Shown: one piece after another, positions 1 to 12,157 of the stretch
How positions within the stretch are numbered: position 1 is the first letter of the stretch
Layout of the letters: each line of letters begins with the position of its first letter
Source: a virus
Lineage: Duplodnaviria > Heunggongvirae > Uroviricota > Caudoviricetes
IMG/VR virus record: IMGVR_UViG_2711768050_000003
Strand: one strand, 5' to 3'
Length of the DNA stretch: 35,951 bases
Notes under the pieces: generated by a model
Database searches by the model: none
Told to the model about the DNA's origin: nothing
The model's input: the letters and a program-made list of their open reading frames with translations, nothing else
Position numbers and translations under genes: made by a program

Positions 1-1254
1 ATGCTGGAACAAATGGGCATTGCCGCGAAGCAAGCCTCGTATAAATTAGCGCAACTCTCCAGCCGCGAAAAAAATCGCGTGCTGGAAAAAATCGCCGATG
101 AACTGGAAGCACAAAGCGAAATCATCCTCAACGCTAACGCCCAGGATGTTGCTGACGCGCGTGCCAATGGCCTTGGCGAAGCGATGCTTGACCGTCTGGC
201 ACTGACGCCCGCACGGCTGAAAGGCATTGCCGATGATGTGCGCCAGGTGTGTAACCTCGCCGATCCGGTGGGGCAGGTAATCGATGGCAGCGTACTGGAC
301 AGCGGCCTGCGTCTTGAGCGTCGTCGCGTACCGCTGGGGGTTATTGGCGTGATTTATGAAGCGCGCCCGAACGTGACGGTTGATGTCGCTTCGCTGTGCC
401 TGAAAACCGGTAATGCGGTGATCCTGCGCGGTGGCAAAGAAACGTGTCGCACTAACGCTGCAACGGTGGCGGTGATTCAGGACGCCCTGAAATCCTGCGG
501 CTTACCGGCGGGTGCCGTGCAGGCGATTGATAATCCTGACCGTGCGCTGGTCAGTGAAATGCTGCGTATGGATAAATACATCGACATGCTGATCCCGCGT
601 GGTGGCGCTGGTTTGCATAAACTGTGCCGTGAACAGTCGACAATCCCGGTGATCACAGGTGGTATAGGCGTATGCCATATTTACGTTGATGAAAGTGTAG
701 AGATCGCTGAAGCATTAAAAGTGATCGTCAACGCGAAAACTCAGCGTCCGAGCACATGTAATACGGTTGAAACGTTGCTGGTGAATAAAAACATCGCCGA
801 TAGCTTCCTGCCCGCATTAAGCAAACAAATGGCGGAAAGCGGCGTGACATTACACGCAGATGCAGCTGCACTGGCGCAGTTGCAGGCAGGCCCTGCGAAG
901 GTGGTTGCTGTTAAAGCCGAAGAGTATGACGATGAGTTTCTGTCATTAGATTTGAACGTCAAAATCGTCAGCGATCTTGACGATGCCATCGCCCATATTC
1001 GTGAACACGGCACACAACACTCCGATGCGATCCTGACCCGCGATATGCGCAACGCCCAGCGTTTTGTTAACGAAGTGGATTCGTCCGCTGTTTACGTTAA
1101 CGCCTCTACGCGTTTTACCGACGGCGGCCAGTTTGGTCTGGGTGCGGAAGTGGCGGTAAGCACACAAAAACTCCACGCGCGTGGCCCAATGGGGCTGGAA
1201 GCACTGACCACTTACAAGTGGATCGGCATTGGTGATTACACCATTCGTGCGTAA
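1..1254 (+). CDS. proA: gamma-glutamyl phosphate reductase (proline biosynthesis)
   Basis: 417-aa ORF starting at base 1; translation recognised as essentially full-length enterobacterial ProA; its chromosomal neighbour thrW follows. Confidence 0.93.
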
Positions 1255-1368: not shown

Positions 1369-1444
1369 GCCGATATAGCTCAGTTGGTAGAGCAGCGCAT
1401 TCGTAATGCGAAGGTCGTAGGTTCGACTCCTATTATCGGCACCA
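1369..1444 (+). tRNA. thrW: tRNA-Thr (anticodon CGU)
   Basis: 76-nt sequence GCCGATATAGCTCAGTTGG...GGTTCGACTCC...GGCACCA with D-loop, T-loop, anticodon loop CATTCGTAATG and encoded CCA; matches remembered E. coli thrW. Confidence 0.9.
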
Positions 1445-1458: not shown

Positions 1459-2622
1459 TTACACATCATTAGTACCTTCCTTATTTATTGACTGGGACAA
1501 ATTTGGGACCGATGGGTTCAGGATCGAGTCTATTTGCCGTGCGTGTTCGGTAAGGTGATTAGGTGCAAGGTGAGCATATCGACGAACCATTTCGATAGAC
1601 TCCCAGCCTCCCATTTCCTGTAACACTGACAACGGGACTCCGGCTTGAACCAGCCAACTTGCCCAGGTGTGTCTCAGGTCGTGAAATCTGAAATCATCAA
1701 TACCAGCCCGTCTCAGCGCCGCTTTCCAGGCTGTGTTTGCGTCATACCGCATCTTCCTTACTGTTGGCGCTTTCGTTCCGTCTGGTTTGGTACAGCTTTC
1801 CTTGTACACAAATACCCAACGGTGATGATTCCCGATTTGTTTTTTCAAAACGCGACATGCAGTATCATTCAGCGCAACGCCGATTGCGCGGTTTGATTTA
1901 CTCTCTTCCGGGTTTATCCATGCCACCCGGCGCTGCATATCTATTTGTTGCCATTCAAGGTTGATGATGTTCGAGCGTCTTAAGCCTGTTGCCAGTGCAA
2001 ATTCAACAACAGACTTTAATGGCTCCGGACATTCATCAATCAGCCTTTGTGCTTCATGGGGCTCCAGCCAGCGGATCCGTTTATTCTTTGGTTGAGGCAC
2101 TTTAATAATTGGTGCCTTATCCAGCATTTTCCATTCACGCTCTGCGGCTCTTAGTAGGGCCTTTATAAATGAAAGATGCGTAGCCTTCGTTGCAACGGAC
2201 GCTGGTTTTGGCGTGTATTCTGGAACAGGTTTCCCTTTTTTTCTGCATGCTTCTGCCCTGAGTTTCCAGTTTTCCTCATGACGCCGGTTCGTCATTTTCT
2301 GCATTGCTGAATAAATTTTTGATTCAGTAATGTCTCTTAGTTGCATTCCTGCGAAATGTTGAAGCCAGAATCCGATCCGGCTTTTGTCATCGTCCAGTGA
2401 TTTTTTATGTGCTTTCTCTTCAAGCCACCTGACACATGCTTCCTCGAACGTTATATCAGGTATTTCACCAAGTTTACTGACCCGCCATGCTTCAGCCTTT
2501 AGCTTGTCATGGAGTTCTGTCGCCTGCCTTTTGTCCTTTGTTCCAAGAGACTGTTTAAATCTTTTACCGTTCGGCAATGTGAAACTGGCGTACCATATTT
2601 CACCTCTGCGGAAGAGTGACAT
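1459..2622 (-). CDS. int: phage integrase, tyrosine recombinase
   Basis: 387 aa; N-terminus [14 protein letters not shown] typical of lambdoid integrases; C-terminal catalytic motifs ([18 protein letters not shown] with the Tyr); adjacent to the tRNA. Confidence 0.9.
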
Positions 2623-7284: not shown

Positions 7285-7959
7285 TTAGGCTTTGATTTTG
7301 TATCTTCTTGGTTTTCCTGAGAAAATCACTGTACCAATTATAGAGCAATTACCGTTGATCTTAATGTAAGGCTCAGGCCAGTTTGGGTTTAACGCTTTGA
7401 GATAACGCTGTGTCCCATCTTCTATCAACCTTTTGAAGGTGGTTTCGCCTGTATCGTGCATCAATGCAATAACGTCGTCACCGTGGCAGGCAGGTACTTC
7501 AGGATCGACAAAAATCATGTCTCCCGGGCGGTACTCATCAATCATTGAATCACCTATCACCCGCAAGATATAAGTCATTTCCCCACAGGGTACAGGGCAG
7601 GGATACGTTTCTGCTGTGCTCAAATCAACCTCAGAATATCCAACTTCTTTCCATGCTCCGGCCTGTACCCATGATATGACAGGGACTAATGTGATTTGTT
7701 TATTAGTGATTGAAACATCAGGTTTTTTTGTGATGTTCGTTGTCTGGTGTTCTTGATCGAGCCATCCGACAGGCAGGTCGAAACATTTTTCGATGTGTCG
7801 TGCCATGCTGTCACCGATATTTTTAGTAGCACCATCTCCCATAAACCTGCTGGTCTGGGTTGGCTCGCGATCAATCATAGTGGCAAAGGAAGAATTCCCG
7901 CCAACACCATCTCTCAGTTTTCTGGCGTTAGACCGCCGGATGTCATGGATTGTTTTCAT
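7285..7959 (-). CDS. cI: CI-like repressor (HTH plus S24 LexA-like autopeptidase domain)
   Basis: 224 aa; C-terminal domain with GDSM (Ser) and FKRL (Lys) dyad; divergent from the cro-like gene across an operator-rich intergenic region. Confidence 0.85.
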   Translation of the reverse strand: MKTIHDIRRSNARKLRDGVGGNSSFATMIDREPTQTSRFMGDGATKNIGDSMARHIEKCFDLPVGWLDQEHQTTNITKKPDVSITNKQITLVPVISWVQAGAWKEVGYSEVDLSTAETYPCPVPCGEMTYILRVIGDSMIDEYRPGDMIFVDPEVPACHGDDVIALMHDTGETTFKRLIEDGTQRYLKALNPNWPEPYIKINGNCSIIGTVIFSGKPRRYKIKA

Positions 7960-8049: not shown

Positions 8050-8250
8050 ATGAAAGCGTATTGGGACTCTTTAACCAAAGAACAGCAGGGCGAGTTGGCC
8101 GGAAAAGTTGGCTCAACACCTGGCTACTTACGGCTGGTTTTCAATGGCTATAAAAAAGCCAGTTTTGTGCTGGCTAAAAAACTTGAGCAATGCACGTCAG
8201 GTGCAATTACGAAATCTGACTTAAGACCGGATATCTATCCGAAAGATTAG
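8050..8250 (+). CDS. cro: Cro-like repressor (YdaS/Cro family HTH)
   Basis: 66 aa from the ATG at 8050 with GGAGG RBS; divergent from cI; resembles YdaS-type Cro proteins. Confidence 0.65.
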   Translation: MKAYWDSLTKEQQGELAGKVGSTPGYLRLVFNGYKKASFVLAKKLEQCTSGAITKSDLRPDIYPKD

Positions 8251-8281
8251 CAGAACACTTTCAATTTTTAACCACAGAACG

Positions 8282-8851
8282 ATGAGGCTAACCGTGGGTA
8301 AGCATCACTGGAAAATAGAAAAACAGCCTGAGTGGTACGTGAAAGCTGTCAGAAAAACTATCGCGGCGTTGCCGGGTGGTTACGCTGAAGCGGCTGACTG
8401 GCTCGATGTAACAGAAAACGCTTTATTCAACCGCCTTCGTGCAGATGGCGATCAGATTTTCCCGCTGGGATGGGCAATGGTTTTACAGCGTGCTGGTGGC
8501 ACTCACTTCATTGCTGATGCTGTGGCGCAGTCTGCAAATGGCGTCTTTGTGTCTCTTCCTGACGTCGAGGATGTGGACAACGCCGATATCAACCAACGCC
8601 TGCTGGAAGTCATTGAACAGATCGGCAGTTATTCAAAACAGATTCGTTCAGCAATCGAAGACGGTGTAGTGGAACCGTATGAGAAGACAGCAATTAACGA
8701 CGAGCTGTATCTCTCAATTTCGAAGCTGCAGGAGCATGCAGCACTTGTCTACAAAATTTTTTGCATTTCAGAAAGTAATGACGCCCGCGAGTGTGCAGCT
8801 CCGGGCGTCGTGGCGTCGATTGCTTCTGGTTGTGGAGAAACTAACGCATGA
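8282..8851 (+). CDS. CII-like / YdaT-type early regulatory protein
   Basis: 189 aa in the position between cro and the replication gene occupied by cII-like regulators in lambdoid prophages; family assignment from memory only. Confidence 0.4.
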
Positions 8852-9186
8852 ACAGTTTAACAACACACTACCGTCGCTCGCAACTGATTGCGCTTCCTGT
8901 ACCGGGTGGAAAAGCGAAGGTGGAATATTGCTATGCAGTGAATGTACCAGGTGACAGGGAAATTGTAACCCACAGCTTTGCAGAGTGGGCTGTGGGTGAT
9001 TTCAACCGGCAGAAGGAGACAGTCCTTTGCGACAAGTTAACCGCTGGTTCAAAGATCACTACGGAGTGCCCGTCAGAGTCATTCGTTGGGAGCCGGAAAC
9101 ACAACGGGTTATCTACCTCCGCGAAGGTTATGAGCATGAATGCTTCAGTCCGCTCGAACAGTTTCGTCGTAAATTCAGGGAAATAG
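8848..9186 (+). CDS. hypothetical protein (possibly only the first ~60 codons are real)
   Basis: 112-aa ORF with ATGA overlap to the upstream gene; the C-terminal half is Ser-rich and low-complexity and overlaps a better-looking frame. Confidence 0.3.
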
Positions 9187-9206
9187 AGGTCGGTCATGAG
9201 CACTAA
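9027..9206 (+). CDS. small hypothetical protein with TTG start, missed by the ORF track
   Basis: AGGAG (9014..9018), 8-nt spacer, TTG at 9027; 59 codons ([40 protein letters not shown]...) ending 11 nt into the replication gene; no in-frame ATG. Confidence 0.35.
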
Positions 9207-10137
9207 ATTAACCGGCTATGTATGGGATGGTTGCGCTGCATCAGGCATGAAGTTATCCAGCGTGGCAATTATGGCCCGCCTGGCTGATTTCAGTAATGAC
9301 GAAGGTGTGTGCTGGCCATCAATTGAAACCATTGCCCGCCAGATTGGCGCGGGGATGAGTACCGTCAGAACGGCTATCGCACGGCTGGAAGCTGAAGGCT
9401 GGTTAACGCGTAAGGCGCGTCGCCAGGGTAACCGCAATGCGTCGAATGTTTATCAGCTTAACGTTGCGAAGCTTCAGGCAGCGGCATTTTCTCAACTGTC
9501 AGATTCTGACCCGTCAAAATCTGACGCATCAAAATCTGACCCGTCAAAATTTGATGCGTCGAAATCTGGCAAAAAAGCGGGTTTTCACCCGTCAGAATCT
9601 GGCGGGGATCCGTCAGTAAAATCAAAACATGATCCGTCAGATAAAAATACTTCTCGTCCGGACGCTTCGCAACCGGACACGCAGACGGCTGAACAGGAGT
9701 TTTTAACTCGCCATCCTGATGCGGTTGTATTCAGCCCTAAAAAGCGCCAGTGGGGAACGCAGGATGATTTGACCTGCGCACAGTGGCTCTGGAAAAAAAT
9801 CATCGCCCTGTACGAGCAGGCCGCCGAATGTGACGGCGAGGTGGTTCGTCCCAAAGAACCGAACTGGACAGCCTGGGCAAACGAAATTCGCCTGATGTGT
9901 GTGCAGGATGGTCGTACTCACAAACAAATCTGCGAGATGTACAGCCGCGTCAGCCGCGATCCGTTCTGGTGCCGTAACGTGCTCAGCCCGTCGAAGCTGC
10001 GGGAAAAATGGGATGAGCTTTCCCTGCGCTTATCGCCGTCCGTCAGCACGCACACAGAAAAACGCGAAGACCCGTACTTCAAATCCAGTTACGACAACGT
10101 GGACTACAGCCAGATCCCGGCAGGATTCAGGGGGTGA
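9196..10137 (+). CDS. replication initiation protein (N-terminal HTH, internal iteron region, DnaT-like C-terminus)
   Basis: 313 aa; N-terminal HTH (IETIARQIGAGMSTVRTAIARLEAEGWL); gene body contains tandem 15-bp iterons as in lambda O. Confidence 0.65.
   Translation: MSTKLTGYVWDGCAASGMKLSSVAIMARLADFSNDEGVCWPSIETIARQIGAGMSTVRTAIARLEAEGWLTRKARRQGNRNASNVYQLNVAKLQAAAFSQLSDSDPSKSDASKSDPSKFDASKSGKKAGFHPSESGGDPSVKSKHDPSDKNTSRPDASQPDTQTAEQEFLTRHPDAVVFSPKKRQWGTQDDLTCAQWLWKKIIALYEQAAECDGEVVRPKEPNWTAWANEIRLMCVQDGRTHKQICEMYSRVSRDPFWCRNVLSPSKLREKWDELSLRLSPSVSTHTEKREDPYFKSSYDNVDYSQIPAGFRG
9505..9650 (+). repeat. Origin-like iteron array inside the replication gene
   Basis: Tandem 15-bp units TCTGACCCGTCAAAA, TCTGACGCATCAAAA, TCTGACCCGTCAAAA, TTTGATGCGTCGAAA (9505..9564), then degenerate CCGTCAG copies and an A-rich tract. 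Confidence 0.6.
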
Positions 10138-10139
10138 TC

Positions 10140-10628
10140 ATGAGTCTGTTAAATGACGTTCATAAATTCATTGAAGCCCATCCGGGGTGTACTTCCGGAG
10201 ACATTGCGGATGCTTTTGCTGGTTACTCACGGCAGCGCGTTCTGCAGTCAGCAAGCAAGTTACGTCAGAGTGGGCGTGTGGCTCACCGTTGTGAAGGGGA
10301 TACACGCAGACATTTCCCGCGCCTGACTGAGAGAGCGCAGGAGCCGGAACCACAACCAGTTCGTGAAACCAGACCTGCGCGCAATTTCTATGTCGGCACT
10401 AACGATCCCCGGGTGATTTTGTGCCTGACCCGCCAGGCGGAAGAACTGGAGTCAAGGGGCTTATACCGTCGTGCTGCAACCGTGTGGATGGCGGCATTCC
10501 GTGAAAGCCACTCCCAGCCAGAACGAAACAATTTTCTGGCGCGTCGTGAGCGGTGCTTACGGAAAAGCAGCAAGCGCGCTGCATCGGGTGAAGAGTGGTA
10601 TCTGTCAGGGAATTACGTGGGGGCTTAA
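10140..10628 (+). CDS. PerC/ANR-family-like transcriptional regulator (tentative)
   Basis: Start at the ATG at 10140 after AGGGGG; C-terminal region resembles the PerC-type motif. Confidence 0.35.
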   Translation: MSLLNDVHKFIEAHPGCTSGDIADAFAGYSRQRVLQSASKLRQSGRVAHRCEGDTRRHFPRLTERAQEPEPQPVRETRPARNFYVGTNDPRVILCLTRQAEELESRGLYRRAATVWMAAFRESHSQPERNNFLARRERCLRKSSKRAASGEEWYLSGNYVGA

Positions 10629-10954
10629 TGACGACGTTAACTCAATGCCAGCAGCAGGTGCTGGATATGCTGATTTCTTATCAGAAAGAACGTGGCTTCC
10701 CGCCAACCAATCAGGAGGTGGCAACCATGCTGGGATACCGTTCAGTGAATGCAGCGGTGGAGCATCTTCGCGCACTGGAGAAAAAAGGTGTCATCACGAT
10801 AAAGCGTGGCGTGGCCCGGGGTATCACTCTTCATACCGCGGTGAAGGACGACGACAGCGAGGCGGTCGGGATTATCCGCGCACTGCTTGCCGGTGAGGAA
10901 AACGCAAGGCTGCGTGCAACCCACTGGTTACATGAGAGGGGCCTGAAAGTATGA
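10628..10954 (+). CDS. LexA-like DNA-binding-domain protein lacking the S24 peptidase domain
   Basis: 108 aa; MTTLTQCQQQVLDMLISYQKERGFPPTNQEVATMLGYRSVNAAVEHLRALEKKGVITIKRGVARGITL aligns residue-by-residue with the LexA N-terminal winged HTH; TAATG overlap with the upstream gene. Confidence 0.7.
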   Translation: MTTLTQCQQQVLDMLISYQKERGFPPTNQEVATMLGYRSVNAAVEHLRALEKKGVITIKRGVARGITLHTAVKDDDSEAVGIIRALLAGEENARLRATHWLHERGLKV

Positions 10955-11340
10955 AGCTGATCCTGCCTTTTCCGCCCAGCGTGAACACGTACTGGCGACA
11001 CCCCAACAAAGGGGCGTTTGCTGGTAAGAGCCTGATAAGCGCGGCGGGGCGAAAATTCCAGAGCGCAGCGTGCGCAGCAATAGTTGAGCAGTTACGTCGT
11101 CTGCCGAAACCAACGTCGGCACCTGCTTCAGTGGAGATCGTGTTGTTTCCTCCGGATAACCGGATCCGCGATCTGGACAACTATAACAAGGCGCTGTTTG
11201 ACGCCCTGACCCACGCGGGTGTGTGGGAAGACGACAGCCAAGTGAAAAGAATGTTGGTGGAGTGGGGACCGGTTATCCCGGAAGGGAAGGTCGAGATCAC
11301 TATCAGTAAGTACGAGAAACCGGCGGGTGCAGCCGCCTGA
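10951..11340 (+). CDS. rusA: RusA-family Holliday junction resolvase
   Basis: 129 aa; conserved RDLDNYNKALFDALT acidic motif and N-terminal PPSVNTYW typical of RusA. Confidence 0.8.
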   Translation: MKLILPFPPSVNTYWRHPNKGAFAGKSLISAAGRKFQSAACAAIVEQLRRLPKPTSAPASVEIVLFPPDNRIRDLDNYNKALFDALTHAGVWEDDSQVKRMLVEWGPVIPEGKVEITISKYEKPAGAAA

Positions 11341-11359
11341 TTAAGAGGAGAAACGAAGT

Positions 11360-12157
11360 ATGAATAATCTGATGGTCATTGATGGTATTGAAGTTCGTCG
11401 TGATGCTTATGGTCGTTACAGCCTGAACGATCTGCACAGGGCTGCCGGTTCTCTGGATAAGCATAAGCCTGCATTCTGGCTCCGCAATGAGCAAACTGAA
11501 CGTTTAATAAGCGAGTTGCAGATTTGCAACTCGGTCAATATAGAGCCAGTTAACGTTATTCGTGGCGGAAATAACCAGGGGACGTATGTCTGCAAAGAAC
11601 TGGTGTATGCCTATGCAATGTGGATCAGCCCGTCATTCCATCTGAAGGTGATCCGTACTTTCGACATGGTAACCAGCGCACCGGAAAAATTATCCGGACA
11701 GGCTGCTGACAAGATGCAGGCTGGTGTGATTCTGCTGGACTTTATGCGCCGGGAATTAAACCTGTCTAACTCTTCAGTGCTTGGTGCCTGTCAGAAACTC
11801 CAGGAGGCTGTTGGCTTACCGAATCTGGCACCGCGCTATGCCATTGATGCTCCTGCTGACGCGCCTGATGGCTCAAGCCGCCCCACGCTGTCACTGAGTG
11901 CACTGCTGAAGCAGTATGGTATCCGCCTGACAGCTAATCAGGCATATCACCAGATGGCGAAGCTGGGGATCGTCGAGCTGCGCGAACGATACAGCCGTAC
12001 CGCGATTAACAACATCAAAAAATTCTGGTCGCTGACGGCGAAAGGCTGCATGTTCGGCAAGAACATCACCAGTCCGGCAAATCCGCGTGAGACGCAGCCG
12101 CATTTCTTCGAATCCCGATTCCCTGAGCTGTTAAAGCTGCTCGATACCGTTCATTGA
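11360..12157 (+). CDS. KilA-N domain protein
   Basis: N-terminal KilA-N signature (YSLNDLHRAAG...KPAFWLRNEQT...YAYAMWISPSFHLKVI); GAGGAG RBS. Confidence 0.7.
   Translation: MNNLMVIDGIEVRRDAYGRYSLNDLHRAAGSLDKHKPAFWLRNEQTERLISELQICNSVNIEPVNVIRGGNNQGTYVCKELVYAYAMWISPSFHLKVIRTFDMVTSAPEKLSGQAADKMQAGVILLDFMRRELNLSNSSVLGACQKLQEAVGLPNLAPRYAIDAPADAPDGSSRPTLSLSALLKQYGIRLTANQAYHQMAKLGIVELRERYSRTAINNIKKFWSLTAKGCMFGKNITSPANPRETQPHFFESRFPELLKLLDTVH

Follow-up and report, generated by a model that had tools for sequence, protein, structure and literature searches.

A prophage gene for a LexA-type DNA-binding domain with a conserved helical tail and no autoprotease, a possible RecA-insensitive LexA surrogate

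The N-terminal domain (NTD) of Escherichia coli LexA still recognises its operator weakly when isolated, LexA(Ind-) holds the SOS regulon repressed despite active RecA, and the natural N-terminal fragment of LexA is a degradation intermediate that is cleared by ClpXP. To our knowledge, gp6 of GIL01 is the sole characterised phage protein that is made of a LexA DNA-binding domain alone. This truncated homologue of LexA, encoded by a tectivirus of Bacillus thuringiensis, binds GaCACAnnTGTGaC, a palindrome that differs from the SOS box and overlaps the -35 element of the late promoter P3, and activates P3 (PMC6182141). Here we analysed a 35,951-nucleotide stretch of viral DNA (IMG/VR record IMGVR_UViG_2711768050_000003; the whole stretch is called the window below), a lambdoid/SfV-like prophage beside tRNA-Thr and downstream of proA, which carries a gene for a 108-aa LexA-NTD-like protein at positions 10628-10954 (Table 1). 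In the reading that we prefer, to which we assign a probability of roughly 0.4, the product is a RecA-insensitive surrogate of LexA that dimerises through a helical hairpin, appears early in the lytic programme and occupies SOS-box-like sites once host LexA has been cleaved.

The identity of the domain was examined by profile, sequence and structure comparison. The 108-aa protein matched the Pfam family LexA_DNA_bind (PF01726) over the full model (positions 1-65 of 65; E = 2.9e-19; 69 bits, the gathering score being 23.7 bits), and phmmer recovered the E. coli LexA DNA-binding domain (1LEA) among PDB sequences (E = 6e-16; residues 2-70, ungapped). The AlphaFold model, with a mean predicted local distance difference test score (pLDDT) of 82, has a helix-helix-helix-wing topology (helices 6-22, 28-35, and 40-52; wing strands 56-58 and 66-68), and Foldseek superimposed this predicted winged helix-turn-helix (wHTH) on two LexA structures, 1LEA and the DNA complex 3JSO, at 1.0-1.3 Å over 66-69 residues with 49-52% identity. 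No Pfam match to the S24 peptidase (PF00717) was obtained for the protein; the NCBI lexA equivalog TIGR00498 was matched at profile positions 1-91 of 203 only, with 70.5 bits, which is under its cut-off of 110.95. A preliminary description of this DNA, made from the letters alone, had proposed a LexA DNA-binding domain with no peptidase domain, and both halves of that proposal hold: the similarity survives a search with the family profile and is far beyond chance, and the domain call and the missing protease are solid. We dropped the idea that the protein is a component of a defence system, as the PADLOC match was marginal and irrelevant.

At full length the protein falls into PHROG 362, a family labelled 'transcriptional repressor', its residues 1-108 aligning with positions 1-106 of the 106-position profile at E = 1.2e-59, and all four subfamilies that we sampled also match this family over their full length. 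The earlier statement that the protein aligns with LexA along its length is only partly right: the wHTH takes up residues 1-68, and residues 75-102 form a separate, conserved hairpin, connected to the wing (residues 56-68) by a low-confidence linker in the AlphaFold model (residues 69-74). Alignments showed that its close relatives in Escherichia, Salmonella, Citrobacter, and Hafnia keep the tail, and an exhaustive HMMER search revealed that relatives at 40-50% identity retain an equal length together with the tail motif ..LLRALL..x..AR.RA..WL...G. Across 70 distinct gene sequences of the divergent P0131-type subfamily, the tail had a ratio of nonsynonymous to synonymous substitution rates (dN/dS) of 0.18 and the wHTH one of 0.20, indicating purifying selection on both. 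The protein is more than simply a truncated LexA, and its tail is family-specific and conserved. The hairpin may substitute for the C-terminal domain of LexA as a dimerisation or interaction module. Whole-length Foldseek similarity to regulators of the MntR/DtxR/MepR type, in which a wHTH is followed by dimerising helices, was weak (root-mean-square deviation [rmsd] 8-12 Å), and we thus treat that likeness as a loose analogy only.

The tail also prompts a different explanation, in which the protein would act mainly through protein contacts and less as a repressor tied to an operator: the tail might, for example, mimic the linker/cleavage segment of LexA and engage RecA filaments, a catalytic domain of the LexA/CI/UmuD type, or ClpXP, and the effect would be a modulated SOS induction or repressor cleavage. 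The HMMER alignment to LexA does run past the wHTH to LexA residue 86-91, into the first tail helix, and sets A88-G89 of the phage protein opposite the Ala84-Gly85 cleavage site; in addition, the tail is conserved as strongly as the DNA-binding domain, and the gene of one subfamily is accompanied by DinI-like and UmuD'/HumD-like genes. We nevertheless consider this explanation improbable, given that Gly89 varies within the family (Citrobacter-type members have Asn, and the distant ones have other residues), that the segment is predicted to be helical with no extended cleavage loop, and that the DNA-contacting residues of the wHTH are under selection, which points to DNA binding. The variable glycine and the predicted helix also led us to discard the notion that the tail holds a vestige of the LexA cleavage site.

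The residues of E. coli LexA helix III that contact DNA are Ser39, Asn41, Ala42, Glu44, and Glu45 (PMC3091678). Four of the five are identical in place in the phage protein (S39, N41, A42, and E45), and the fifth, Glu44, is V. S39 is invariant and N41 nearly so, even among relatives at 40% identity. The residues that are kept are compatible with recognition of a CTGT half-site, which is not to say that they prove it. As to when the protein might be made, no promoter-like or terminator-like site was found on the + strand from ~8160 to 11340, a span that takes in all of the region upstream of the gene, and the gene therefore lies within the early-right lytic transcript. It is presumably silent in the quiescent lysogen and made after induction or infection.

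The following course of events would fit the preferred reading. Lacking the S24 autoprotease, a binder derived from LexA would be beyond inactivation by RecA. It would be expressed from the early-right lytic operon after induction or infection, and the hairpin would dimerise it in place of the LexA C-terminal domain. Judging from the conserved contact residues, the dimer would bind CTGT-type operators that resemble SOS boxes. Its targets would be in trans, namely the host SOS regulon and the LexA-controlled genes of co-resident prophages or plasmids, on which repression would be re-imposed at a time when host LexA is already cleaved.

A search of the 36-kb window for CTGT-N8-ACAG with at most one mismatch returned 19 matches against 11.5 expected, none of which was perfect. 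We also scored the window with a position-specific scoring matrix (PSSM) built from 21 known E. coli SOS boxes, which themselves score 13.4-27.6. The best site in the window reached 11.3, level with shuffled sequence, whose maximum averaged 11.5. A complete sister prophage, which has 97.9% identity in the late region, gave a maximum of 11.1 and likewise has no SOS box; the uvrB box in the neighbouring host DNA beside that sister prophage scores 23 by the same matrix. The preliminary description had offered phage operators resembling SOS boxes as one set of targets. No such operator was found in the window or in the complete sister prophage, and regulation of an SOS-like operator in the home prophage was accordingly rejected as a role. 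With no SOS box in the prophage, any SOS-like targets would therefore lie in trans, in the host regulon or in other LexA-controlled elements. The earlier interpretation is partly supported: occupation of SOS boxes independently of RecA appears plausible and has in its favour that the phage protein retains four of the five residues with which LexA contacts DNA, and it is narrowed here to targets in trans.

Some relatives of the gene stand in an SOS context. In the P0139-type subfamily (~41% identity), an SOS box of at least 17 bits, here counted as strong, lies within 1 kb upstream of the gene in 25 of 34 loci, and the density of such boxes is 0.75 per kb in the upstream 1 kb versus 0.053 per kb elsewhere. 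The box directly follows or overlies the -10 element of a promoter-like site, downstream of a terminator. In the five loci L173-L177 the order is terminator, promoter-like site, box ACCTGTACATTCATACAGTG right after the -10 element, phrog_1813, LexA-like gene, and phrog_1212. We regard these SOS links, together with those of the siblings below, as suggestive. Homologues of the partner genes of the P0139 type (phrog_1813, phrog_1212, and DinI) are absent from the window, and a P0213 scan of viral contigs gave no matches.

One P0139-type locus (L173:5507-6608) is a discrete LexA-box operon of three small genes, coding for phrog_1813, the LexA-NTD protein (phrog_362), and phrog_1212. Elsewhere (L195:4837-6527 and similar loci) a DinI-like gene with an SOS promoter of its own stands in front, and further upstream there is a UmuD'/HumD-like gene with another box. 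DinI-like and UmuD'/HumD-like genes often precede the P0139-type operon, making up a compact phage 'SOS module'.

Siblings whose gene is near-identical to that of the window often carry SOS boxes too, in three places. Ten related loci have the box TACTGTATTTATGAACAGTG in a gap of ~150 bp between rusA and the KilA-N gene (PHROG 129), 85 bp upstream of the latter (e.g., L006:6765-6784), a layout that resembles a LexA-controlled antirepressor arrangement; the corresponding gap of the window (11341-11359, 19 bp) has no SOS box. In SfV (L207:8671-8690) and in 26 IMG/VR loci (e.g., L073:8321), a gene for a DNA methyltransferase past Q has a second box, TACTGTAAAAATAAACAGTG, at its 5' end, and at this position the window has a different gene and no SOS box. 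The third place is the linker between HTH and peptidase within the cI-like S24 repressor allele, where 24 related loci (L003:1540-1559, L015, L023-L025, and L033 among them) have the near-consensus box TACTGTTTTTACATACAGTA or its ...TAT... variant; the cI allele of the window is without it.

Several points weigh against reading the protein as a LexA surrogate on SOS boxes. In every aligned family member, position 44 is V, A, F, T, L, I, or Y and never Glu, and with Glu44 replaced the specificity may differ from that of LexA. Dimerisation via the tail is a step that we infer. The SOS context is confined to a single subfamily: the window type as it stands in this prophage and the P0131 and P0123 types are without it, and loci of the P0123 type (52% identity, 56 loci) and of the P0131 type have almost no SOS boxes nearby. 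A family-wide linkage to SOS boxes, strong in the P0139 type and absent in the P0123 and P0131 types, was accordingly dropped. DinI-like genes bear LexA boxes of their own in many phages that are without the LexA-like gene (PMC7556043). Lastly, the promoter of gp6 is LexA-repressed, yet gp6 binds another site and activates (PMC6182141), so that a place in a LexA-repressed operon is no proof of SOS-box binding.

The case of gp6 introduces the main rival, namely that the protein is a phage-specific repressor or activator with an operator that has ceased to be an SOS box. We hold this rival to be possible and somewhat less likely than the surrogate. The precedent of a truncated LexA homologue retargeted to the phage late promoter P3 (PMC6182141) speaks for it, as do the absence of Glu at position 44 from the family and the absence of SOS boxes from this prophage and from most related loci; the PHROG label, for its part, is a name and not a test. 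Against it, the screen for shared palindromes (250 related loci from the four subfamilies, up to +/-6 kb each; 5-nt arms, spacers of 0-12) yielded only two shared sites, both in coding sequence, and hence no candidate phage operator. They are GGCGG-N6-CCGCC at the 3' coding end of rusA (window 11322-11337), rejected as coding sequence, and AAACT-N11-AGTTT at the junction after the cII-like gene (window 8838-8858), rejected as a coding junction. The retention of four of five LexA contact residues also runs counter to an operator of another kind, a Q-type antiterminator precedes the late genes, so that a late activator like gp6 is not obviously needed, and gp6 has neither a tail nor BLASTP similarity to the window protein. 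Should the protein prove to have an operator of its own, it would be a second independent phage retargeting of LexA's DNA-binding domain, after GIL01 gp6.

If binding to SOS boxes is true, many lysogens of E. coli, Shigella, and Stx (Shiga toxin) phages carry a RecA-proof SOS repressor that appears on induction. This could affect mutagenesis and repair once DNA has been damaged, the moment at which lysis occurs, the biology of Shiga-toxin phages, and the question of which of several co-resident prophages wins when an SOS signal arrives. Taken further, the surrogate would be a phage override of the SOS response, in which about half of complete E. coli genomes encode an uncleavable protein that, appearing early in the lytic programme, re-occupies SOS boxes once host LexA is gone, shuts the host SOS regulon, and silences rival elements; this extension is speculative, and we think it somewhat unlikely. 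If true, the genes silenced in rivals would include SOS-dependent antirepressors of other prophages and colicin operons, and the override would serve host takeover or competition between mobile elements.

The gene is widespread. The 1.4 kb that surround it recur with ~97% identity in 51 phage records, including SfV (where the gene is orf42), SfII, mEp460, mEp390, the cdtI phage, Stx2c-converting phages, and some Stx2a phages, and are found at 95-99% identity in 2703 of 5426 complete E. coli genomes. The NCBI Prokaryotic Genome Annotation Pipeline (PGAP) names the product 'LexA family transcriptional regulator' or 'LexA family protein', and the same ORF (open reading frame) is annotated in the related locus L001. 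The gene is already annotated in thousands of records and is very common, and is hence no discovery. Searches of the full-text literature turned up no functional work on the enterobacterial family, and the loss of the gene from E. coli K-12 may be why the family is little studied. The K-12 remnant prophage CPS-53 (L209; NC_000913.3 2471544-2473246) still has an O-like fragment (yfdO), the PerC-like yfdN, and yfdM, a truncated methylase; a deletion reaching from there to the tail-fibre genes has removed the LexA-NTD gene together with rusA.

That K-12 lost the gene without obvious consequence, and that the gene looks like the front half of lexA, would agree with a decaying, functionless remnant of a captured lexA. 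Selection disfavours this, and we give it very little credence: the stretch with the gene is present in about half of the complete genomes, the ORF is intact in all 16 of the full-length cluster representatives that were aligned, dN/dS is ~0.2 for both domains in a divergent subfamily, and the members at 40-50% identity keep length and tail motif.

A variant architecture was seen in seven proteins (P0132, P0133, P0148, P0151, P0153, P0156, and P0159), which have two tandem LexA_DNA_bind domains and no S24 domain. These may be single-chain pseudo-dimers, another way to dispense with the dimerisation domain of LexA.

Table 1. Positions of the LexA-NTD-like gene, its parts and other features in the window.
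Feature	Position	Strand	Evidence or remark
LexA-NTD-like gene	10628..10954	+	intact ORF, 108 codons plus stop; ATG 10628-10630, TGA 10952-10954
winged helix-turn-helix, residues 1-68	10628..10831	+	AlphaFold pLDDT ~87; Foldseek vs 1LEA/3JSO
recognition helix region, residues 39-52 (SVNAAVEHLRALEK)	10742..10783	+	ungapped alignment to E. coli LexA
C-terminal helical hairpin (predicted), residues 75-102	10850..10933	+	helices 75-87 and 93-102, AlphaFold pLDDT ~88
proA	1-1254		left end of window
tRNA-Thr(CGT)	1369-1444		left end of window
tyrosine integrase	1459-2622	-	left end of window
cI-like S24 repressor	7285-7959	-	
O-like replication initiator, first of overlapping gene chain	9196..10137	+	phrog_391 E=1e-135; Pfam HTH_36
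PerC-like gene (yfdN type)	10134..10628	+	Pfam PerC E=7.6e-9; phrog_1324; PGAP 'yfdN'
rusA, Holliday-junction resolvase	10951..11340	+	Pfam RusA E=6e-15

In the early-right region of the prophage, cro is followed by the cII-like, O-like, PerC-like, and LexA-like genes and by rusA, and the series continues to Q. After rusA come a KilA-N gene (11360-12157, PHROG 129), a DUF968/HNH gene, and the Q-type antiterminator. Family members occupy the nin-like region of lambdoid prophages, from the replication genes to Q, and usually stand directly upstream of rusA; this position was confirmed in the window, SfV, L001, L094, L162, and L208. At its start the LexA-like gene overlaps the PerC-like gene as TAATG (10626-10630; TAA of the PerC-like gene and ATG of the LexA-like gene), and at its end it overlaps rusA as ATGA (10951-10954; ATG of rusA and TGA of the LexA-like gene). 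The translational coupling to the PerC-like gene that had been described at the outset is real as an overlap and incidental as an arrangement. In SfV and most relatives, a 654-bp dam gene, which overlaps the LexA-like ORF, stands between the two, and the TAATG junction exists because dam is absent here. A functional unit with PerC was dropped on the same ground. The overlap that is kept is the one with rusA, shared by the three subfamilies in which rusA comes next; the window and SfV have it, as do two subfamilies at 44-48% identity (L094 and L162).

Further observations concern the neighbours. With proA, tRNA-Thr(CGT), and the integrase at the left end of the window, the prophage is inserted at a thrW-type site; its 97.9% identical sister is located between ybhC and ybhB instead. 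Within the O-like gene, 4.3 copies of a 15-bp repeat (TCTGACCCGTCAAAA) at 9505-9568 encode DPSKSDASKS repeats and resemble the origin iterons embedded in lambda O. The PerC-like YfdN is a two-part protein: its N-terminal half (residues 6-68) is winged-helix-like with weak matches of the MarR/BilQ type, and its PerC domain (residues 98-149) has a weak match to ANR-family regulators. At the 3' end of rusA, the GC-rich hairpin GGCGGGTGCAGCCGCC (11322-11337) is kept in 74-82% of loci in three subfamilies and falls in coding sequence (...AGAAA* C-terminus).

Compared with E. coli LexA (1LEA, 3JSO; TIGR00498), the phage protein has the same N-terminal wHTH (~51% identity, rmsd ~1.1 Å). It has no S24 domain and hence none of the catalytic residues Ser119 and Lys156, lacks the conserved Ala-Gly self-cleavage site, has Glu44 replaced, and carries a helical hairpin where LexA has its dimerising C-terminal domain. 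Its gene lies in an early operon with no SOS boxes upstream, which only relatives of the P0139 type have. The LexA cleavage fragment (1-84) and LexA(Ind-) mutants may be seen as functional analogues; unlike fragment 1-84, the phage protein is a gene product that is stable and under selection, and it has a conserved tail in addition.

Among the phages of PHROG 362, the window protein is a family member with the same neighbours and nothing essential sets it apart; the window copy is without the usual preceding dam, and its prophage has no SOS box, unlike SfV and many siblings. With GIL01 gp6 it shares the plan of a phage-encoded LexA DNA-binding domain without a protease, gp6 also being made early in the lytic programme. 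Unlike the window protein, gp6 has 66 aa, ends after the wing with no tail, and is of Firmicute LexA origin. BLASTP found no local alignment between the two at E <= 100, and a relationship between them was dropped on that result. The two proteins are independent derivations of one idea, and what distinguishes the window protein among phage regulators made of the LexA domain only is its gammaproteobacterial LexA ancestry together with its conserved helical tail.

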